From positions 768,001 through 832,000 of the forward strand of contig CAVPQB010000004.1 in assembly GCA_963707505.1 (NCBI GenBank): a DNA stretch of 64,000 nt, in the 5' to 3' direction. Numbering within the stretch: position 1 is the first letter of the stretch; every line of letters begins with the position of its first letter. The DNA is from an uncultured Gemmatimonadales bacterium. Lineage in GTDB: Bacteria; Gemmatimonadota; Gemmatimonadetes; Gemmatimonadales; Gemmatimonadaceae. The notes under the pieces are model-generated. The model was not told the origin of the DNA. It worked only from the letters and a program-made list of their open reading frames with translations, and did not search any database. This document shows, piece by piece, positions 19,438 through 33,467 of this stretch. The position numbers and the translations under genes were made by a program.

Positions 19438-19492
19438 GACCCGAAAGCTAACTCCGGCAGAGATGCACGGTGTTAGCCATGCTGTCCGTTCG

Positions 19493-21071
<1,579 letters not shown>

Positions 21072-23376: not shown

Positions 23377-23562
23377 CTAAGGCTTCCAAAGATCGCACTC
23401 CGAGGGGTCGTGGCGCCACCCTGCGGCCATTTTGCGCGCGGTGACGGTGCCAGGGCGCCCTGGGATGAGGGAGACGGCTCCGCGGCGCGCAGCGAGCGGC
23501 GGCGCGGTGTAGCGTTTTGCCCACTGGTGCGTAATACGTGTGCTGGTATACGATTAGACCGG

Positions 23563-23922
23563 ATGCTCAGACCGACCCAAAGCGTACGACGTAATAGCGG
23601 GCGGTGGGGATGGCGGCTGGCAGCTGTGCTGGCCATCCTTGCCCAATGCTGGATAGCGGTGGCTCCTCTTTCAGAGAGCCGCGGCTTTGGGCTATCCGCG
23701 CACGTCGAGGCGACGGGAAACCATCGGGGTCATTTCACGCACGACGCTGCGTCGTGCGCCGCGTGCTCCGTGCTGTCGCTCCACGCATTGAGCTCGCATC
23801 CGGCGGCGGTCCCGGTGCCGCCCGGCCAGCCGGTCTTCCGGGCGGTCACTACCGCTGAAGCGTGGATCGAAGCAGTTCAGCTTAAATCGGTCCAGCCCAG
23901 GGCGCCTCCCGCGTCTGTGTAG
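23563..23922 (+). CDS. DUF2946/CruR/CutF-like exported His/CxxC leader protein with C-terminal RAPP motif (copy 1)
   Basis: Basic N-region and hydrophobic segment, HVEATGNHRGHFTHD, CAAC, Pro-rich linker, ends QPRAPPASV*. Lies directly upstream of the TolC gene. Confidence 0.8.
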   Translation: MLRPTQSVRRNSGRWGWRLAAVLAILAQCWIAVAPLSESRGFGLSAHVEATGNHRGHFTHDAASCAACSVLSLHALSSHPAAVPVPPGQPVFRAVTTAEAWIEAVQLKSVQPRAPPASV

Positions 23923-23996
23923 TCCACGTCCGGTAGTCCGCGTGCATTTCCGCACGCGTGTGCATGCGGGCGTGTCAACACAACGAGAGAGATCGC

Positions 23997-25268
23997 ATGT
24001 CCCTAGCACGCTGGACTGCGCTGCTCGCACTCTGTGCAAGCAGCGCGTCTGCCCAACAACGTCCCGATACCCTGCTACTGACTCGCGCGGCCGCGATCCA
24101 GCTGGCGCTGGAGCACAATCCGCAGCTCGACGTCGCGCGGGAGCAGATCGCCGAGTTTCGCGCAGCCAGGGTTCAGGCTGTCGCAATCCCCGATCCGGCA
24201 GTCACGGCTTCGCTGGATGGGCAGCCAGGCCTGTTCCGCTCTTCAGCCACAGGCCAGAAGAATGTCGGTGCAACGCTGCAGGTTCCCTTTCCTGACAAGT
24301 TCCGTTTGCGCGGTAACGTTGCCGGCGCCGACATACGCAACGCGCAGGCGAACTATACGGCGCTTCAGCGTCAGATCGCTGCGCAGACCGCCGAGCAATA
24401 CGATTCGCTGTTGGTGGCGCTGCGACATCGAACGGATTTTACCGAGGCACAGACGCTCGCGAACGACTTTCTCAAGCGCACCCAGGCGCGGTTCGACGCA
24501 GGAACGGCGCCGCGACTCGACGTCATCAAGGCGCAGGTGGACGTTGCGGCGGCGACCAACGATTTGATATCGAACGAGCGCGCGATCGCGAACGCCTCAT
24601 CAGGATTGAATCGCTTCATGGGGCGCTCGCTTGGCGCTCCAATTGTCGCGACGGATTCGCTGACGGTGCCGCCGTCGCTTCCATCGGTAGATGTGCTCGA
24701 GCGCGAGGCGTTGAACGCGCGGCCGGAGCTCGCAGGTCTGATGGCGCAGCGCAAGGGAGCACACTCGGCCACGACTCTCGCGCGTGAATTCTGGCTTCCC
24801 GACCTCACCCTCGGCGTTTCGCGCGACGTGTCAGGCAACAGTGGGCCGGGAGTTTTCTCTACCGGCCTCGCATTTCCGCTTCCGTTGCTGTTCTGGCAGC
24901 ACACTAAGGGTGAGGTGAGCCAGTCCCTGCACTTCGAGCGTGAGTTGGCCGCGTCGTACCGCGATCTCGAAGCGGAAGTTGGCCAGGACGTGCGAAACGC
25001 ATACGCGGCAGCGAGCACTTCACTACGGCAGGCGATCTACATACGTGATCAGCTGCTTCCATCCGCACGTGAAGCTTACCGGTCGACAGCGGCGAGCTAC
25101 GCGATCGGCGGATCGTCGGCGTTTGAAGTCATCGACGCGCGCCGCACTCTGCTCGATGCGCAGAGTCAGTATTCCGACGCACTGGCCGCGGCCAACACAT
25201 CCAGATCCGATCTGGAACGCGCGGTAAGTGTGCCACTCGAAACCATCGCTTCCGGACCGAACCAATGA
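23997..25268 (+). CDS. TolC/CzcC-family outer membrane efflux protein
   Basis: Signal peptide MSLARWTALLALCASSASA, LTRAAAIQLALEHNP, two OEP-like helical repeats; upstream of the adaptor and RND genes. Confidence 0.9.
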   Translation: MSLARWTALLALCASSASAQQRPDTLLLTRAAAIQLALEHNPQLDVAREQIAEFRAARVQAVAIPDPAVTASLDGQPGLFRSSATGQKNVGATLQVPFPDKFRLRGNVAGADIRNAQANYTALQRQIAAQTAEQYDSLLVALRHRTDFTEAQTLANDFLKRTQARFDAGTAPRLDVIKAQVDVAAATNDLISNERAIANASSGLNRFMGRSLGAPIVATDSLTVPPSLPSVDVLEREALNARPELAGLMAQRKGAHSATTLAREFWLPDLTLGVSRDVSGNSGPGVFSTGLAFPLPLLFWQHTKGEVSQSLHFERELAASYRDLEAEVGQDVRNAYAAASTSLRQAIYIRDQLLPSAREAYRSTAASYAIGGSSAFEVIDARRTLLDAQSQYSDALAAANTSRSDLERAVSVPLETIASGPNQ

Positions 25269-26413
25269 GCATGAAGTCATTCTGTTTGATTGCTGGCCTC
25301 GTTCTCTTGTCGGCTTGTGGAGGGTCGGATGAATCAGCGAATACGGTGACGCCGGCATCGGCCAAGCCATCCAACCTTACACTCACAGCGGAACAACAGG
25401 CGCGTATTCATCTGGACACCATTGCTCCGTCGAAGTTTTATCCCAGCGTATCGACGACCGGTACCGTCGCGTTCAACGGCGACAGGTCGACGCAGGTGCT
25501 GTCACCGGTTTCGGGTCCCGTGACCAAACTGCTCGTGCAGCCGGGTACTGTAGTCGCGAGCGGCACCGCACTGGCAACGGTTTCGTCTCCCGACTTCGCG
25601 GCAGCCGTAGGAAGCTATCGCAAGGCGGTTGTGACGGCGACCAACCTTCAGCGGATCGCCGACCAGGACGTGCAACTCTTCAAGACCGACGCGCTGTCGC
25701 GTCGGGATCTCGAGCAGGCCCAGACCGACGCCGCGTCTGCGGTCGCTGACAGAGAAGCGGCGCTGGAGCAGATCAGATCCCTTGGCATCGACCCGGCCGT
25801 AATCGCGAACGCGACGAACGGTGGCAGTACTGGAGCAGTGCCGGGTGTAATTCGTGCGCCGATTGCCGGAACGGTCGTCGAGCGACTCATCACACCAGGA
25901 CAGTTGCTCCAGGCAGGGGGAACGCCAGCGTTTACCATCGCGGACCTGTCGACTGTATGGGTGATGGCGAACGTGTTCGAGTCCGATCTCGCGAGCGTGC
26001 ACAAGGGCGAGCACGTGACCGTGACTAGCGCAGTGAGTCCAACGCCGTTCGACGGCACTGTCGACTACGTCGGTGCACTGGTCGATTCTTCCACTCGCGC
26101 GACATCCGTACGCCTTGTGGTGCGCAATCGCGATGATCTGCTGAAGCGAGACATGTACGTCAATGTCGCGATCAGGGGCGATCGCCAGAAGTCGGGAATT
26201 CTTGCACCGGTAGATGCCGTGCTTCGCGACGATCAGAATCTTCCGTTCGTCTTTGTCGCGACCGGCAATTCGCCAAATGTGCAGTACGCGCGGCGCAGCG
26301 TCACACTCGGCGCGCGTATCGGCGATGACTACGAGATACTGTCCGGACTGAATCCCGGTGACCGTGTGGTTGCAGAGGGTGCGTTGTTCCTGCAGTTCGC
26401 GGAGAGCCTGTGA
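25265..26413 (+). CDS. RND efflux periplasmic adaptor (CzcB-like lipoprotein)
   Basis: Lipobox LSAC, SPVSGPVTKL, IRAPIAGTVVER, IADLSTVWV, GLNPGDRVV; ATGA overlap with the TolC gene. Confidence 0.92.
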   Translation: MSMKSFCLIAGLVLLSACGGSDESANTVTPASAKPSNLTLTAEQQARIHLDTIAPSKFYPSVSTTGTVAFNGDRSTQVLSPVSGPVTKLLVQPGTVVASGTALATVSSPDFAAAVGSYRKAVVTATNLQRIADQDVQLFKTDALSRRDLEQAQTDAASAVADREAALEQIRSLGIDPAVIANATNGGSTGAVPGVIRAPIAGTVVERLITPGQLLQAGGTPAFTIADLSTVWVMANVFESDLASVHKGEHVTVTSAVSPTPFDGTVDYVGALVDSSTRATSVRLVVRNRDDLLKRDMYVNVAIRGDRQKSGILAPVDAVLRDDQNLPFVFVATGNSPNVQYARRSVTLGARIGDDYEILSGLNPGDRVVAEGALFLQFAESL

Positions 26414-29400
26414 CCCCTCCCGATTCCAATGGTTCGCCGGACGGGTCCGGCGCAAACCATCCACGGAGTGCGCTTCCACAGATAGAGGAGCCCGGTTTGG
26501 CGGAGGGCGCGGCACAATCGTTTGTGAATCGTGTCGTCGCGGCGTCGCTGGCACAGCCACTGTTGACCGGCATTCTCGCGATTGTGTTGATAGGCGTCGG
26601 TGCGTGGTCGTTTTCCCGCCTTCCTGTGGATGCGTATCCCGATGTTTCGCCGCCGATGGTCGAGATCATATCTCAGTGGCCCGGCCATGCTGCGGAAGAG
26701 GTGGAGCGACTGATAACCGTACCCGTCGAAGCTGGTATGAACGGCACGCCGAACCTGAAGGTCATGCGCTCGGTTTCGTTGTACGGACTGTCCGATGTGA
26801 CGATGACTTTCGAGGATCGGACCGACACGTATTTCGCACGGCAGCAGGTGTTCGAGCGCATACCGGATCTGAGCCTGCCTGACGGTGTGTCGTCGTCCGT
26901 CGCGCCGATGTCGTCGCCATCGGGGCTGGTTTATCGATACGTGGTCCAGAGCCCTGACCGCACGCCGATGCAGCTCAAGAACATTCAGGACTGGATCCTG
27001 GAAAAGCAGTACAAGGCGGTTCCTGGTGTTGCCGACATGTCGTCGCTTGGCGGCCAGACGATGCAGTATCAGGTGCTCATCGATCCCACCAAGCTTGCCG
27101 GCGCCGGACTCAACGTGTCCACGCTGGCGAACGCGCTTGGCAACAACAATGGGAACGCGGGCGGCGGCTTCTACTCTGAGGGCGGGCAGTTCTACTACGT
27201 TCGCGGACTCGGCCGAATCAACACTCTTGAGGACATCGCAAACACCGTAGTCGCCGTGCAGAACGGGACACCGGTGCTGGTGAAGGACGTCGGCTCCGTC
27301 GAGATCGGTTATGCGCCGCGGCTCGGTCAGTTCGGCTTCAACGACCAGAACGACGCCGTGGAAGGCGTGATCCTGATGCGCACGGGCGAGCAAGCGCAGA
27401 CGGTGCTCAAGCGCGTCGAACAGAAAACGAACGAGCTCAACACCACAGTTCTTCCGAAGGATGTGAAGGTCGTCCCATTCTACGATCGCAGCGATCTCAT
27501 ACAGCTCACGACCAAGACGGTGGAGGACAATCTCCTCCGCGGTATCATCCTCGTAGTGGTGATTCTGATCTTCTTCCTGTACGACATCCGCTCGGGGCTC
27601 ATCGTCGCGGTATCGATACCGCTGGCGTTGATGTTCGCGTTCATCTGCCTGGATCTCAAGGGCATTCCGGCGAATCTGCTGTCGATCGGAGCGATCGACT
27701 TCGGAATCCTGGTGGATGGCGCCGTAGTGATGGTCGAAAACATCCACCGGCAACTGGCGCGACGACACGGCACCGCGTATGACATAAAGACGGTGATAAC
27801 GGAAGCCGCCGCGGAAGTGGATCGTCCAATCGTGTACGCGATAGCTGTGATCATTGCAGGTTTCTCGCCGATCTACGTCCTTACTGGACCGTCAGGCAGG
27901 CTGTTCAAGCCGATGGCGGATACCACGATCTTTGCTTTGATAGGATCGTTACTGGTGACCATCACGCTTCTTCCGGTGGTGTGTGCGGTGGTGTTGCGCG
28001 GCGGTGTGAAGGAACGCCGGAACGCGACCTTCGAATGGATCCTCCTGCAATACAGGCGCGGTCTGGAATGGAGTCTCCGGCACGCGAAGCTCGTACTGTG
28101 GGGATCGATTGCGATCGGCGTTGCATGCTTGCTGATTATCACGCGGATCGGTGGCGAGTTCATGCCCAAGCTCGACGAGGGTGCGCTCTGGGTTCGAGCG
28201 ACTATGCCGTACACGATCTCGTTCGAGGAGTCCTCGAAGATCGTCCCGCAGATAAGGGCGATCATCAAGTCGTTCCCCGAAGTCACACTGGTAGCGTCTG
28301 AGCACGGACGTCCGGATGACGGAACCGACGCAACGGGATTCTTCAACGCCGAATTCTACGTTGGGCTCAAGCCGTACGGAGAGTGGCACGGCAAGTATCG
28401 CACAAAGCCGGAGCTGATCGCGGCCATCGATCAGAAGTTGCGCGCCTATCCTGGAATCACGTTCAACTATACCCAGCCGGCGGAAGATGCCGTCGACGAA
28501 GCCGAGACGGGCCTCAAGAGCTCGCTCGACGCGAAGATATTCGGGACCGATCTGAAAGTGCTGCAGGAGCGGGGAACACAGATCAAGAAGGTGCTTGATC
28601 AGGTGCGCGGTATCAATCAGGTTACGCTCGTTCAGGAGCTGGGCCAGCCGGCGCTGACTGTAACCGCGGATCGCGCGAAGATGGCGCGCTACGGTCTCAA
28701 CGTTTCGGATGTGAATGGGCTGATCGAGGCCGCTGTCGGCGGCGCGGCGGCAACGCAGGTCGTGCAGGGAGAGCAGTTATACGACCTGGTTGTGCGGTTG
28801 CAACCGCAGTTCCGTGAGACGGCCGACGAGATCGGCAACATTCTCATCGCGACGCCGAGCGGCGCACAGATCCCGCTTCGCGAGGTAACGACGCTCAAGA
28901 TCGATAACGGCGCGTCGTTCATCTACCGACAGGACAACTCGCGGTACATCGGTCTGCAGTATTCCGTGACCGGGCGCGATCTGGCCGGTGCAGTGGATGA
29001 TGCGCGAGCGCAGGTCGCGCGAAAGGTGAAGCTGCCGCCCGGTTACTCGATAGTCTGGGGTGGCGAGTTCGAAGAGTACACGGCCTCGCGTCGTCAGCTG
29101 CAGATAGTGTTGCCGCTGACGCTCGCGGTGATTTTCATCCTGCTATTCGCGTTGTATCGGAACTTCAAATTTCCATTCATCACCGTCGCCGGTGTGCTCC
29201 TCTCTGCGCCACTCGGCGGACTGGTTGCGTTGTGGATATCCGGGACTCCATTCTCGGTCTCGTCCGGGATCGGCTTTCTCGCGTTATTCGGTGTATCCGT
29301 GCAGACGGCCGTGGTCTACATCTCCTACGCCAACGAGCTGCGGATCGGCGGTCTTGGAATCTCGGAGGCGACGCTGGACGCTGCACTGCTGCGATTGAGA

Positions 29401-29598
29401 CCGATCATGATGACGGCACTCGTTGCGGCGCTGGGACTGCTTCCTGCAGCGTTTTCTACGGGAGTGGGATCTGATTCCCAGCGACCATTCGCGATGGTGA
29501 TCGTGGGCGGCCTCTTTTCGCGTCTTCTGCTGAGTGTGTTCCTGATGCCAGTATTGTACCTGATGGTGTCGCGCGATAACGACGAGCTGCACGTCTAG
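26410..29598 (+). CDS. CzcA/CusA-family heavy-metal efflux RND permease
   Basis: LPVDAYPD, AEEVERLITVPVE, TM4 GAIDFGILVDGAVVMVEN, GGEFMPKLDEG, RLRPIMMTALVA, GSDSQRP. Confidence 0.94.
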   Translation: MTPPDSNGSPDGSGANHPRSALPQIEEPGLAEGAAQSFVNRVVAASLAQPLLTGILAIVLIGVGAWSFSRLPVDAYPDVSPPMVEIISQWPGHAAEEVERLITVPVEAGMNGTPNLKVMRSVSLYGLSDVTMTFEDRTDTYFARQQVFERIPDLSLPDGVSSSVAPMSSPSGLVYRYVVQSPDRTPMQLKNIQDWILEKQYKAVPGVADMSSLGGQTMQYQVLIDPTKLAGAGLNVSTLANALGNNNGNAGGGFYSEGGQFYYVRGLGRINTLEDIANTVVAVQNGTPVLVKDVGSVEIGYAPRLGQFGFNDQNDAVEGVILMRTGEQAQTVLKRVEQKTNELNTTVLPKDVKVVPFYDRSDLIQLTTKTVEDNLLRGIILVVVILIFFLYDIRSGLIVAVSIPLALMFAFICLDLKGIPANLLSIGAIDFGILVDGAVVMVENIHRQLARRHGTAYDIKTVITEAAAEVDRPIVYAIAVIIAGFSPIYVLTGPSGRLFKPMADTTIFALIGSLLVTITLLPVVCAVVLRGGVKERRNATFEWILLQYRRGLEWSLRHAKLVLWGSIAIGVACLLIITRIGGEFMPKLDEGALWVRATMPYTISFEESSKIVPQIRAIIKSFPEVTLVASEHGRPDDGTDATGFFNAEFYVGLKPYGEWHGKYRTKPELIAAIDQKLRAYPGITFNYTQPAEDAVDEAETGLKSSLDAKIFGTDLKVLQERGTQIKKVLDQVRGINQVTLVQELGQPALTVTADRAKMARYGLNVSDVNGLIEAAVGGAAATQVVQGEQLYDLVVRLQPQFRETADEIGNILIATPSGAQIPLREVTTLKIDNGASFIYRQDNSRYIGLQYSVTGRDLAGAVDDARAQVARKVKLPPGYSIVWGGEFEEYTASRRQLQIVLPLTLAVIFILLFALYRNFKFPFITVAGVLLSAPLGGLVALWISGTPFSVSSGIGFLALFGVSVQTAVVYISYANELRIGGLGISEATLDAALLRLRPIMMTALVAALGLLPAAFSTGVGSDSQRPFAMVIVGGLFSRLLLSVFLMPVLYLMVSRDNDELHV

Positions 29599-29599
29599 G

Positions 29600-29980
29600 G
29601 TGCCGTTTCGGATGATGGCAACTGGTGCAGGCGCGCGCGGGCGGCCGCGGGGACTCAGAGTCTTCGCGCTCGCCTTCGCGTTGCTGCAGTTCGGCCTTCA
29701 GGGGACGTTTGCGGTCAGCGACGGCTACGAAGAGCAGGCCAGTTCGCACGTCGCGCCCGTTCACGCCGAGATACCGGGCAATCACCACCATCGCCTGCAC
29801 GACAGCGATTGTGTCGTCTGTCACGTCCTTGCGACTGGCTCGACGGTGCCCCCGCGCGCAGTTCCAGCGTGGCTCGACGCCGAGCGTGTTTCGGTCGCGC
29901 CTCCGACCGAGATCGGTGCACGTCCCTACGCCCTCGTTGCCGGCTCCCGGCTCGCTCGCGCACCGCCGGTGAAAGTGTGA
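29600..29980 (+). CDS. DUF2946/CruR/CutF-like exported His/CxxC leader protein with C-terminal RAPP motif (copy 2)
   Basis: Basic N-region and hydrophobic segment, HAEIPGNHHHRLHD, CVVC, Pro-rich linker, ends LARAPPVKV*. Start is GTG 29600 or ATG 29612; lies directly upstream of the TonB-dependent receptor. Confidence 0.8.
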   Translation: MPFRMMATGAGARGRPRGLRVFALAFALLQFGLQGTFAVSDGYEEQASSHVAPVHAEIPGNHHHRLHDSDCVVCHVLATGSTVPPRAVPAWLDAERVSVAPPTEIGARPYALVAGSRLARAPPVKV

Positions 29981-30055
29981 TCTGAAGGTGGAGGCAGAGC
30001 CTCCGCCATGGATTTACGTCGCCGCCACTTTCTGGCGGCGCGATCACACTATCGC
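29969..30055 (+). promoter_or_regulatory. Predicted multibranch mRNA structure linking the RAPP leader stop codon to the receptor initiation region
   Basis: Closing stem gtga-a-agtgtgatc (29969-29982) / gatcacact-a-tcgc (30042-30055) encloses hairpins at 29987-30007 and 30020-30040. Confidence 0.6.
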
Positions 30056-30066
30056 ATTCAAAATTC

Positions 30067-32478
30067 ATGTCAAATCAACGCGTTTCAGCGCGCGTGGTGG
30101 CGTGTGCGCTCTCCCTGGCCGCGTGCGTCGCCGCCGTTCCAGCGCACGCTTTCGCACTGTCATCAGTCGCGGAAGTCACCGATGCCGGCATCGGCCCGAT
30201 GGCACGTGGCGATCTCACCGGCACAGTAACCGATAGCGCATCCGGTCAACCGCTTCCCAGTGCCGAGGTGAGCGTGATGCAGGGTGGCCGCATCGTGCTC
30301 ACAGCAAGCACCGATGCTTTCGGCCGGTACATCGCGCACGACCTTCCATCCGGCACGTACACCATCAACGTGCGCCTGATCGGCTTTCGGATTCAATCGC
30401 GTGATGTAGCCGTTGGTCCCTCGGGCGACATTCGCGCAGACTTTCGCTTACCGGTGGTAGCGCTGAGTCTCTCTTCAGTTGCTGTAACCGCTGCGATTCC
30501 GCTCGCAGTCGATACGAGGTCCGGCGATCAACGCTTCAAGCAGGACTCATATCACGGCGCGCCGACCAACACCACATCGCAGATCCTTCAGCAGTCGATT
30601 GCCGGCGCAGCTCGTGCACCGACGGGTGAGGTACACATCCGCGGGCAGCACGCCGAGTACACGTATTATGTCGATGGTGTACCCGTGCCGGCTGGAATAT
30701 CTGGCAGCCTCAACGAGCTGTTCGATCCCAGTATCGTGAACCAGATCGATTTTCAGACAGGTGGCTGGGACGCAGAGTATGGAAACAAGAATGCCGCCGT
30801 TGTGAACGTCCAGACGCGCATTCCTGTCGGCGGATTTCATAGCACCATCTCCGGGTACGGCGGCTCGTTCAACACGAACGGCGAGGGAATCACGGCGAGC
30901 ACGAACAGCGGCCCGTGGGGATTCTTCGTTTCAGGCAGTCGCAAATCCACTGACATGCGACTGGAACCCGTAGTTTTCGATACCGCGCGCGACAAGGTGG
31001 TCAACTTCCACAACCATGGAGAGGATTACTCCGCCTTCGCCAAGGTGCAATACACCCCGAACGCATCCAACGTGTTCGACCTCGACGCGAGCCTCTCGAC
31101 GACGCGTTTCCAGGTGCCCTATGATTCGACCGGTAACGTCGTGCTGGATGACCATCAGCGCGATCGCAACGCGTTCGTGAACCTCGGCTATCGTCACATC
31201 TTCGGCGCTGACACGACCGCCGGAGTCGAAGGCGGTGCGACCACGCAGTCTCGCGTGGCGGAGCTGTTCGTTGGAGGCTTCGTGCGATCCGGTGGGTTGA
31301 TGTACATGCCGGGCGCTGGCGACTCTGCGCAATTCGTGTTCTTTCCAGATACGCTCAACGCGTACAACCTGCGCGAAAATCGCAATTTCACGACGTACGG
31401 CATCAAGGCCGACTACACCGTGCATCCTGCGCGCGAGTTGGAATTCAAGTTCGGAACGCTGAGCCAGTACACGACTGGCCACGAAGATTTCGTCACCACG
31501 ACGAATTCCGGCGCGTCGGGTCCTGCATCCAATTCGAATCTCAAGGGATACGATGTCGGTGGATACGCCCAGACCTCGTACTCTCCAATTGAGCGGTTCG
31601 AGATCAGAGCCGGTGTTCGCTACGACGCGCATAATGCACCATTTGCCGGGACACAGACTCAACTGAGTCCCCGTATTCGACTCAACTTCTTCCCGGACCC
31701 TGGCAACACATTCTACCTGTACTACGGGCGACTCTTCGTTCCGACCAACGTCGAGGATCTCCGCGCGATTACGAGCGTCGCACAGCAGGGAGTCACCGCA
31801 GCACCAACGCTGCCGGAGCGCGACAACTTCTACGAGGCCGGGTACATTCACCGCTTCCCGTTCGGCCTCGTGTCCAAGTTTGCGGGCTACCACAAGCAGA
31901 GTACGCCGGGCATCGATGACAACACGGTCCCAGGCTCAGCTGTCGTCACGTCGGTGAACATTGCGCAGGTACGCATCACTGGACTCGAGACTGTACAGGA
32001 CTTCCGCCCACCCGGTCCATTCTCGGCGTACCTCAACGTCGCGCTCAACCATGCGTATGGCCAGGGACCCATCACCGGAGGCTTTTTCCCGACTGATACG
32101 CCGCAGGGATACTTCGATCTTGATCACGATCAGCGGCTTTCCGGCACGATCAGCGCGACGTATGCACCGGGTCACTTCTACACGAGCTACACCGGTACGT
32201 ATGGATCGGGTCTTACGAACGGCCTCCAGCCGGCTGATTGCAGCTGCTCGTACGGCACGGCATTGCTCGACTTCAACAAGGGGACCCACGTGAGCCCGAG
32301 CTACATCTCGAATGTGAGCGTCGGCTATTCCTTCGCTGTGGGCGGCTCGTTGGTTCGGCCGGAACTGTACGTCGATAACCTCTTCGACAAGAAATATCTG
32401 TTGAAGGGTGCATTTTTCAGCGGCGCATCCGTCGGGCGCCCACGCAGTGTTCAGATCCGCGTCAACATCGCGCAGTAG
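30067..32478 (+). CDS. TonB-dependent receptor with N-terminal carboxypeptidase-regulatory-like domain
   Basis: Signal peptide, GTVTDSASGQPLPSAEV domain, plug motif HIRG...YYVDGVPV, TGGWDAEYG, and a barrel ending DNLFDKKY...GRPRSVQIRVNI. Confidence 0.88.
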   Translation: MSNQRVSARVVACALSLAACVAAVPAHAFALSSVAEVTDAGIGPMARGDLTGTVTDSASGQPLPSAEVSVMQGGRIVLTASTDAFGRYIAHDLPSGTYTINVRLIGFRIQSRDVAVGPSGDIRADFRLPVVALSLSSVAVTAAIPLAVDTRSGDQRFKQDSYHGAPTNTTSQILQQSIAGAARAPTGEVHIRGQHAEYTYYVDGVPVPAGISGSLNELFDPSIVNQIDFQTGGWDAEYGNKNAAVVNVQTRIPVGGFHSTISGYGGSFNTNGEGITASTNSGPWGFFVSGSRKSTDMRLEPVVFDTARDKVVNFHNHGEDYSAFAKVQYTPNASNVFDLDASLSTTRFQVPYDSTGNVVLDDHQRDRNAFVNLGYRHIFGADTTAGVEGGATTQSRVAELFVGGFVRSGGLMYMPGAGDSAQFVFFPDTLNAYNLRENRNFTTYGIKADYTVHPARELEFKFGTLSQYTTGHEDFVTTTNSGASGPASNSNLKGYDVGGYAQTSYSPIERFEIRAGVRYDAHNAPFAGTQTQLSPRIRLNFFPDPGNTFYLYYGRLFVPTNVEDLRAITSVAQQGVTAAPTLPERDNFYEAGYIHRFPFGLVSKFAGYHKQSTPGIDDNTVPGSAVVTSVNIAQVRITGLETVQDFRPPGPFSAYLNVALNHAYGQGPITGGFFPTDTPQGYFDLDHDQRLSGTISATYAPGHFYTSYTGTYGSGLTNGLQPADCSCSYGTALLDFNKGTHVSPSYISNVSVGYSFAVGGSLVRPELYVDNLFDKKYLLKGAFFSGASVGRPRSVQIRVNIAQ

Positions 32479-32487
32479 CCCGCACCC

Positions 32488-32536
32488 GCGATCGCGTGGG
32501 GAAGGGCACCGACACGCCCATTCCCCGCTCGATCGC
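32488..32536 (+). terminator. Long GC-rich hairpin after the receptor gene
   Basis: gcgatcg..tggggaa.gggc / gccc.ttccccg..cgatcgc imperfect stem with no U-tract; may be a stabilising or processing hairpin instead. Confidence 0.4.
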
Positions 32537-32672
32537 CCTCGTCACCGCAGTGAGCCGATTGTACCACATCCTGGCCATGCAATGCGTACATTGGACGGGT
32601 CGATCGCGGACTGGGTGAACGGATGCAAATCCTGCCGCCGCGAGGTGGAATTTTCATTCGGGGCGAACAGTC

Positions 32673-33467
32673 ATGTTACTGACACGAACAGTGTGTGCGG
32701 CGAGACGAACGGCGTTTGCGATGGCAGCAGTGTGCGCGATGACGAGTGCGGTCGCGGCGCAGGACAACACGGAGATTCAGGTCTACGGCGCGGAGACCGT
32801 CGCCGCCGGCCGTACGATGCTCGAGCTGCACAGCAACTTCACCGATCGCGGGAGATCCACGACCGAGGACGGCGTGCAGCCGACGCTACACGCGATGCAC
32901 GAGACGGTCGAGGTCACTCACGGCTTCACACCGTGGTTCGAGGTCGGTTTCTACACGTTCACCACCGTCCAGCCCGATGGACAGTTCGAGTACGTCGGCA
33001 ACCACGTTCGGCCGCGCTTCAGAATACCCGAGTCGTGGGGATTGCCCGTTGGACTCAGTCTGTCGCAGGAAGTCGGCTACCAGCGCAGTCTCTTCTCTGT
33101 CGATACATGGAGCTGGGAAATTCGCCCGATCGTCGACCAGACGCTCGGAAGATTCTACTGGGCTCTGAATCCGACCTTCGAGCGCACGCTCAAGGGGCCC
33201 GATGTCGTCAAGGGATTCGAATTCACACCGAACGCCAAGATCGCATTCGACGTTACCAAACTCGTCACGGCGGGCTTTGAATATTACGGGGCGATGGGCG
33301 ACGTGAGGCACTTCGATCCGTGGCAACAGCAGAGCCACGAGATCTATCCCGCGATCGATCTGAATCTCGGCCCTGACTGGGAAGTCAATTTCGGTGTGAG
33401 CGTTCCGGTCTCGAAGGGTGTCGAGGACCGGCGGGTAATCAAACTCATCACCGGCCGCCGCTTCTGA
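32673..33467 (+). CDS. Hypothetical outer-membrane beta-barrel protein
   Basis: Signal peptide ending AVAA-QD, alternating beta-strand pattern, C-terminal Phe (ITGRRF). Confidence 0.7.
   Translation: MLLTRTVCAARRTAFAMAAVCAMTSAVAAQDNTEIQVYGAETVAAGRTMLELHSNFTDRGRSTTEDGVQPTLHAMHETVEVTHGFTPWFEVGFYTFTTVQPDGQFEYVGNHVRPRFRIPESWGLPVGLSLSQEVGYQRSLFSVDTWSWEIRPIVDQTLGRFYWALNPTFERTLKGPDVVKGFEFTPNAKIAFDVTKLVTAGFEYYGAMGDVRHFDPWQQQSHEIYPAIDLNLGPDWEVNFGVSVPVSKGVEDRRVIKLITGRRF

Follow-up and report, generated by a model that had tools for sequence, protein, structure and literature searches.

Two RAPP Leader Peptides Ahead of a Metal Efflux Pump and a TonB-Dependent Receptor in Gemmatimonadaceae: A Probable Zinc-Linked Branch of the CruR/CutF Kind

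This study was concerned with a metal-homeostasis locus at positions 23563-33467 of a 64,000-nucleotide stretch of DNA from an uncultured Gemmatimonadales bacterium (hereafter the window; contig CAVPQB010000004.1 of assembly GCA_963707505.1), in which one small leader gene precedes a heavy-metal efflux module and a second precedes a TonB-dependent receptor. The locus is a real, conserved feature and a divergent, probably zinc-linked branch of the upstream-peptide systems known from CruR and CutF. A common signal probably controls its pump and importer in the same direction, the reverse of the opposite control envisaged as a possibility in the original prediction. By analogy with CruR the two leaders are very probably functional arrest leaders. 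The full model, in which both are same-sign zinc switches that turn their modules on at low zinc, is given a probability of roughly 0.45.

The components and the general mechanism are already known. The characterised members of the leader family so far all sense copper, and a zinc-responsive leader, if true, would extend arrest-peptide sensing to a second metal; no zinc riboswitch was known according to PMC9426467. The locus also bears on the question raised in PMC11647595 of why ZniCBA-type pumps rise in metal starvation. With two leaders, two mRNA junctions and natural swaps and duplicates, it is a compact test bed for asking if the peptide or the mRNA sets the sign of regulation.

The leaders and their family

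The genes of the locus are co-oriented, and the predicted order was borne out with every gene in its place:

23563..23922, + strand: leader 1, an efflux-clade DUF2946-like upstream open reading frame (ORF) of 119 aa (H-x-E, H-x2-H-x4-CxxC, 44 residues, RAPP, 3 codons)
23755..23766, + strand: CxxC of leader 1 (CAAC)
23899..23910, + strand: RAPP codons of leader 1, whose predicted pairing partners are the ribosome-binding site and start codon of tolC
23997..25268, + strand: TolC-family outer-membrane factor (Pfam OEP; ATG 23997 is preferred, the longest ORF starts from GTG 23958)
25265..26413, + strand: periplasmic adaptor of the resistance-nodulation-division (RND) system
26410..29598, + strand: HME3a-type, ZniA-like heavy-metal RND pump (DFG-x3-DGA-x3-VEN; proximal site L173/D640/E648/D693/E697)
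29600..29980, + strand: leader 2, an uptake-clade DUF2946 upstream ORF of 126 aa (start GTG, alternative ATG 29612; CxxC to RAPP 45 residues)
29810..29821, + strand: CxxC of leader 2 (CVVC)
29957..29968, + strand: RAPP codons of leader 2; 2 of 10 close relatives have RSPP here
30067..32478, + strand: TonB-dependent receptor with an N-terminal carboxypeptidase-regulatory-like domain
32673..33467, + strand: small outer-membrane barrel-like protein of 264 aa (MetA-pathway-like 'transporter' clusters); accessory

The motifs originally ascribed to both leaders are present, namely a hydrophobic export-type N-terminus, H-x-E-x-x-G-N-H, H-D-x(2-3)-C-x-x-C, and RAPP followed by three codons and the stop. 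Each N-terminus is basic and then hydrophobic (13-residue mean hydropathy 2.33 and 2.25). In leader 2 a His replaces the third Cys of the uptake clade. The co-occurrence of these motifs is not chance. In a six-frame control, 380 segments of the genome carry R[AGS]PP near a stop, and 19 of these have CxxC; among 39 longer R[AG]PP segments genome-wide, the two leaders alone combine a hydrophobic stretch with a long gene downstream. The genome, which is 83% complete, holds two such leaders and no others. With the P site at the first Pro of RAPP, the cysteines would lie 47-51 residues away, which from tunnel lengths would place the Cys site just outside the ribosome or within the translocon.

The leaders resemble CruR of Bordetella pertussis (Bp2923, DUF2946/PF11162), which has CxxC, 45 residues to RAPP and three residues to its end, and which does not require its signal peptide (PMC9426467). 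CruR arrests at RAPP in vitro, with the toeprinted P site at the first Pro (PMC12992588). The likeness extends to the CxxC, the spacer of about 45 residues, RAPP plus three, the export signal, the position as first gene of a module, the TonB receptor downstream and the long structured gap. The window leaders differ from CruR in an extra conserved His/Glu site, in cargo that suggests zinc rather than copper, in occurring as two copies per locus of which one heads an RND pump, and in a host from Gemmatimonadota rather than Proteobacteria. CutF of Rhodobacter capsulatus is likewise a secreted upstream peptide with a Cys site and a proline stall; it needs elongation factor P (EF-P) and its signal peptide, and copper induces its stalling (PMC9973294; bioRxiv 10.1101/2025.02.05.636593). 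However, the CxxxC and PPP signature of CutF is absent from both window leaders, which have CxxC and RAPP. By inference from CruR, ribosomes in the window's leaders would stall and be released in a metal-dependent manner. The proposal that sensing is periplasmic is unsupported, since CruR, with the same geometry, dispenses with its signal peptide (PMC9426467) whereas CutF does not.

The Pfam model PF11162 (DUF2946) gave a split answer, with leader 2 scoring 31.3 bits against a gathering cut-off of 23.7 and leader 1 falling below it at 12.5 bits. When the last ~107 residues of 46 of the 116 collected leaders were scanned, 24 matched at E<=0.05 and 3 exceeded the cut-off. Motifs and scores together suggest that the leaders are a divergent branch of the DUF2946/CruR-type upstream ORFs.

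Conservation was assessed in 201 genomes of the family, including genomes marked unpublished; 64 of them hold a TolC relative and 43 a receptor relative. The loci compared were the best 30 each for TolC and the receptor plus 80 of 182 receptor loci of the genome collection, with some duplicates. A CxxC-RAPP leader precedes 37 of 38 TolC loci, and the 38th has a single-Cys RAPP leader. By the same strict test 60 of 96 receptor loci with room have one, and 12 more have variant RAPP leaders (judged by eye). This supports the original reading of CruR/CutF-like RAPP leaders, which relatives have kept. Cys-to-RAPP spacing is 43-46 in 85 of the 86 leaders that pass a 41-48 filter, and 58 of the 86 have a RAPP tail of three residues. 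The shared G-N-H is specific to the window's clade. All 36 collected efflux-type leaders have CxxC, although the selection favoured it; CxxH and single-Cys variants exist among relatives' leaders. Leader 1 is the head of its efflux module; leader 2 is internal in the window, although most relatives have it at the head of a separate unit. Leaders L238-L241, from other families of the order, keep the first Cys only, at a distance of 48 residues from RAPP and within the pattern H-x-x-x-C or C-x-x-H-x-x-x-C; the fixed point may be this first Cys rather than CxxC.

Each half of the locus is already in print, that is, a leader before TolC/RND and a leader before a TonB receptor (PMC9973294, PMC12992588, PMC4176598), and both arrangements rank with the most frequent classes of RAPP/DUF2946 leaders in published surveys. 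The commonest neighbours of CutF-like genes are outer-membrane efflux proteins, followed by TonB-like proteins (PMC9973294), and the source data of Fujiwara et al. 2025 place RAPP upstream ORFs before RND adaptors (620), TolC (530), CusA/CzcA (50) and TonB receptors (5450) (PMC12992588). In the available parts, these entries and Caulobacter CC2720-czrCBA (PMC4176598) give the same pairs singly and not in tandem. No account of tandem or zinc-sensing RAPP leaders, or of the sign of tandem leaders, was found in the open-access literature (survey supplements may list such loci), but leaders before efflux operons had already been catalogued.

The sensed metal

It is fairly likely, judging from neighbouring cargo, that the sensed metal is zinc-type rather than copper. 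Copper is unlikely because the pump groups with ZniA and because sister leaders head AztC/AztB-like and ZnuD-like zinc importers; the pump class and this sister cargo support the non-copper divalent metal of the original prediction. The pump matches the CusA/CzcA family TIGR00914 with 912 bits (cut-off 701). Among five reference pumps it is nearest to ZniA of Cupriavidus metallidurans (41% identity, SH-aLRT 99, quick tree), and its best PDB match is ZneA. It shares with ZniCBA and ZneCBA, which are HME3a systems, the D-x-x-G-F-F-N-A-E loop, four of five proximal acidic ligands and the signature of transmembrane helix 4 (TM4), DFG-x3-D-x4-EN (HME3a: ZneA/ZniA/HmvA), here IDFGILVDGAVVMVEN. The proximal site reads L/D/E/D/E rather than the E/D/E/D/E of ZniA, one ligand being lost (positions from Table S7 of PMC7060636). 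The hallmarks of HME4 pumps (CusA/SilA), an A(V/I)G TM4 signature and Met sites, are absent, and identity to SilA is 32%. Cupriavidus differs in its control, which uses promoters and antisense RNA; the available parts of PMC11647595 and PMC7060636 report no RAPP leader there.

The cargo of sister leaders in relatives points the same way. A third type of module consists of leader, porin, binding protein and permease; the best NCBIfam matches of its proteins are AztC and AztB, which score below their cut-offs. In G363 this porin-AztC-AztB set follows the pump and a leader. In G071 a leader and a receptor that best matches ZnuD (below cut-off) come after the same pump, and in G298 the receptor at this place is scored slightly better by heme receptors than by ZnuD. 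The window's receptor has 11 His, 1 Met and 0 Cys conserved at 90% over 53 sequences. It has no NCBIfam match to ZnuD or TonB-copper models and no PDB sequence match at E 0.01, and its fold is a generic TonB barrel (fold matches at 11-17% identity). A ZnuA/AztC-type binding protein was not found in the window's genome or in four relatives, one of the searches having no positive control. Sets of His and Cys with CxxH variants, such as those of the leaders, resemble tetrahedral zinc sites.

In G095 a copper module (TonB receptor-CopC/CopD) has a leader of a different family (L151:8172-8561, - strand), which is His/Met-rich, with C-P-M-H and CxC..CC, and ends in P-F-A-N-G-P-P.

Direction of regulation

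In the model proposed here, scarcity of zinc, or of a similar divalent metal, would make ribosomes stall at RAPP in both leaders. By opening the mRNA structure of the junction, the stalled ribosome would allow both the ZniA-like pump and the TonB receptor to be made, and metal at the His/Cys site would release the stall and turn both modules off. The pump would then belong to a metal-limitation module that cycles or sorts periplasmic metal, as proposed for ZniCBA, and would not serve detoxification. That both leaders have the same sign is somewhat favoured over the reverse. The upstream elements and predicted junctions that bear on this are as follows:

23510..23533, + strand: TAGCG-N15-CGTA element upstream of leader 1, a variant of the CT[AG]GCG-N16-CGTA motif
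23549..23554, + strand: TACGAT, candidate -10 box, 8 nt before the leader 1 ATG
23897..24005, + strand: junction 1 (74-nt gap), where a long stem is predicted between the RAPP codons and the Shine-Dalgarno sequence and ATG of tolC (z -3.0 for 23880-24020)
29969..30056, + strand: junction 2 (86-nt gap), predicted to fold as a three-way junction, with the final codons and the stop of leader 2 closing it (z -4.6)

A TAnnnT box lies 4-9 nt ahead of the start in 31 of 35 efflux leaders and in 54 of 92 leader loci overall, and this closeness suggests that the leader mRNAs are leaderless or near-leaderless. Housekeeping promoters resemble TTGAC/TAnnnT. The CT[AG]GCG-N16-CGTA motif is positioned 12-13 nt before the leader start (e.g. 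L093, L098, L101, L115, L117-L130), and its variant in the window may be a promoter or operator. The N16-CGTA form is reminiscent of promoters of extracytoplasmic function (ECF) sigma factors. No regulon for the motif was found in the window's genome and five others, and the motif is not enriched genome-wide. Gene-by-gene annotation of the locus and its flanks revealed no regulator genes within the locus, which agrees with the earlier claim that no metal-sensing regulator is encoded there; a trans-acting regulator may still operate, because a motif specific to efflux leaders exists. No intrinsic terminator was identified at either junction by a promoter/terminator scan that was otherwise uninformative.

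Junction 1 is mostly invariant in eight close relatives, with compensatory change in 6 of 31 pairs and an unfavourable covariation term. Compensatory change affects 8 of 29 pairs of junction 2 in ten relatives. Over the collected loci, pairing between leader and ribosome-binding site exceeded that of shuffled controls both before TolC (7.4 vs 5.3 nt, n=35) and before receptors (5.9 vs 3.7 nt, n=55), using 12 shuffles each and with one start fixed by hand. The stall was modelled by blocking a ribosome footprint with the first Pro in the P site, following the CruR toeprint, with script-chosen starts and gaps >200 nt dropped. With the block, the median opening energy was 5.7 instead of 11.1 kcal/mol before TolC (n=35) and 5.9 instead of 8.1 kcal/mol before receptors (n=55). 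In this model the mRNA favours 'stall = on' in both junction classes, and an opposite sign would thus have to come from the peptide, as between CruR and CutF. With regard to Rho-dependent termination, the C-over-G skew of leaders is slightly higher before receptors (0.142) than before TolC (0.116). Within window positions 30008-30229, hairpin 1 of junction 2 hides a GGAGG; an out-of-frame ATG, not kept in all relatives, follows 13 nt later.

Leaders also appear to have crossed between efflux and uptake. In each of the genomes G266 and G363, the efflux leader and the uptake leader match each other best (60% and 44% identity), and in G401 and G101 they are sister rows, those of G401 joining on long branches. 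At least four efflux/uptake changes are forced by starred branches of a 45-row tree. Same-genome efflux and uptake leaders are often recent duplicates. One efflux-type cassette (leader, 39-41-nt gap and first codons) heads TolC in L042 and L057 and porin-AztC-AztB in L048 and L056, with 80% mean column identity over the four sequences and the same predicted hairpin; no matching pump was found in the genomes of L048 and L056, which are incomplete. In addition, ZniCBA and ZneCBA proteins rose in EDTA-starved, not metal-shocked, C. metallidurans (PMC11647595). A recent duplication of the window's own two leaders was considered and rejected, given their places in different clades and their identity of 32%.

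Several observations weigh against the same-sign zinc model. Identity to ZniA is just 41% within a small reference set, and all 12 aligned Gemmatimonadota pumps have Leu in place of the E136 ligand. Many of the other observations speak for opposite logic, in which leader 1 would be CutF-like (metal promotes the stall, pump on) and leader 2 CruR-like (metal releases the stall, importer off), a possibility that we consider real and of about one chance in three. In a quick tree of 116 leaders with few columns, those of Gemmatimonadaceae form one clade for efflux, which holds 35 of 36 TolC leaders, and one for uptake, which holds 74 of 80 uptake leaders; leaders 1 and 2 of the window, 32% identical, fall on different sides. 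Cargo labels change 9 times on this tree against a shuffled mean of 43.5. The His/Cys patterns differ, H-x2-H being present in 29 of the 36 leaders before efflux genes and C-x3-H in 58 of the 65 before receptors, and the gap before the downstream gene has a median of 72 nt for TolC vs 111 nt for receptors. The CT[AG]GCG-N16-CGTA motif precedes 19 of 35 efflux leaders, with 4 more at N15, and 0 of 57 receptor leaders. The window's junctions themselves differ: junction 1 is predicted to hide the ribosome-binding site, as the CutF stem-loop does, and junction 2 is not, the receptor start being A/U-rich, without a Shine-Dalgarno sequence and predicted unpaired. The modelled stall takes the window's junction 1 from 7.2 to 6.0 kcal/mol and makes junction 2 less open (1.4 to 4.2), though not so in L031. 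Both signs exist in the family, in CutF and CruR (PMC9973294); the Caulobacter DUF2946 gene CC2720 heads the zinc-induced czrCBA operon (PMC4176598); and zniBA RNA rises eight-fold on metal challenge, Zni being considered by its authors a former excess-zinc exporter (PMC11647595). However, simple linkage alone also yields clade fidelity, both leaders carry the motifs of CruR and not of CutF, and leader codons pair with the ribosome-binding site before importers too. Opposite logic is thus possible and is not favoured, as the duplicates and the cassette swap cross the efflux/uptake line and the closest characterised pump is starvation-induced (PMC11647595).

The same architecture could instead serve copper, nickel or cobalt, or the two leaders could sense different metals or thresholds, which we regard as improbable. 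The CxxC is a copper sensor in CruR, where the effect of zinc is moderate (PMC9426467), and HME3a pumps export a broad range of divalent metals. The AztC/AztB matches compete with MntC-type models, which match too, and sequence, Atlas and fold searches for the substrate of the receptor returned the generic fold only. Nevertheless, the pump lacks the Met sites of CusA, the receptor is poor in conserved Met and Cys, the leader sites are His-rich with CxxH and single-Cys variants, the G071 receptor best matches ZnuD, and a copper module is served by another leader family. It is very improbable that the leaders monitor secretion or the envelope state, as ApdA, ApdP and SecM do, or are secreted metal-binding peptides whose metal site does not gate the downstream genes. 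The first descriptions of RAPP leaders were as monitors of protein localisation (PMC10951233), Cupriavidus CzcI has been discussed as a periplasmic modulator (PMC11647595), and about a quarter of the receptor loci with room (~24, e.g. L004-L007, L012-L018, L026-L029) have no RAPP leader. Against this, the fixed Cys-to-RAPP spacing, the invariant first position in modules and the conserved structure over the stop codon fit regulation in cis, and the cargo is always a metal-type transporter.

Gene order in relatives and neighbouring genes

As predicted, leader 2 starts after a single base past the RND stop. Its GTG is retained in 8 of 10 close relatives, and two of these have lost the alternative ATG. 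The RND gene precedes leader 2 in 10 of 11 metagenome loci of the window's clade (long match), the 11th being a short end. One transcript, as had been suggested, is plausible in this clade, but gene order and orientation are not conserved elsewhere. TolC and receptor lie within 20 kb in 10 of the 32 genomes that have both (read from coordinates); two of these are adjacent tandems, two are on the same strand with intervening genes, one is reversed, one convergent and four divergent. Many of the remaining genomes have the two on different contigs and are uninformative. In G072, of the same genus and 98% complete, leader 2 and the receptor are missing. A single conserved operon as a general rule was rejected because order and orientation vary and G072 has no receptor module. 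The modules gather near malic enzyme and ftsEX, yet their order shuffles freely; in the window the locus is flanked by a divergent malic enzyme gene and a convergent GHL10 gene.

The tandem is recurrent and not unique to the window. Among 29 loci with room, 6 have a leader after the pump stop (the 33 loci considered included 4 that were hand-picked, and one unpublished locus was dropped), and in G401 the leader ATG overlaps the pump stop. Pump, leader and importer recur in this order with different cargo, which is the TonB receptor in the window, a ZnuD-like receptor in G071, a heme/ZnuD-like receptor in G298 and porin-AztC-AztB in G363.

A broader and speculative reading, which we consider doubtful, is that zinc homeostasis in Gemmatimonadota uses interchangeable ribosome-arrest zinc sensors, duplicated and swapped between importers and a ZniA-type pump, with the pump in a phylum-wide zinc-starvation response and the leaders doing the job of Zur in the window's genus. 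No Fur-family protein was found in the five genomes of this genus (G000, G072, G124, G163, G194), four of them 96-99% complete; the window's genome has one DtxR/MntR-type repressor. A strong Fur match is missing in 44 of 64 TolC-positive genomes vs 44 of 137 others, counting 11 weak matches as absent and with kin that are not independent. The leaders as a general replacement of Zur are unsupported, since Fur-family genes are present in all five other tandem genomes tested.

The small barrel at the end of the locus is intact in the window and L167 and is a remnant or absent in several close relatives (e.g. L154, L164); its Atlas look-alikes are mostly acidobacterial. It was rejected as a core part and appears to be an accessory gene that is being lost. 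Upstream of the locus, a gene which we take to encode phosphoenolpyruvate carboxykinase (window 19473-21071, - strand) is split into two overlapping frames, 19473-21071 and 19493-19888. G124 has one frame of more than 517 aa at this place, and the split is probably a sequencing frameshift.

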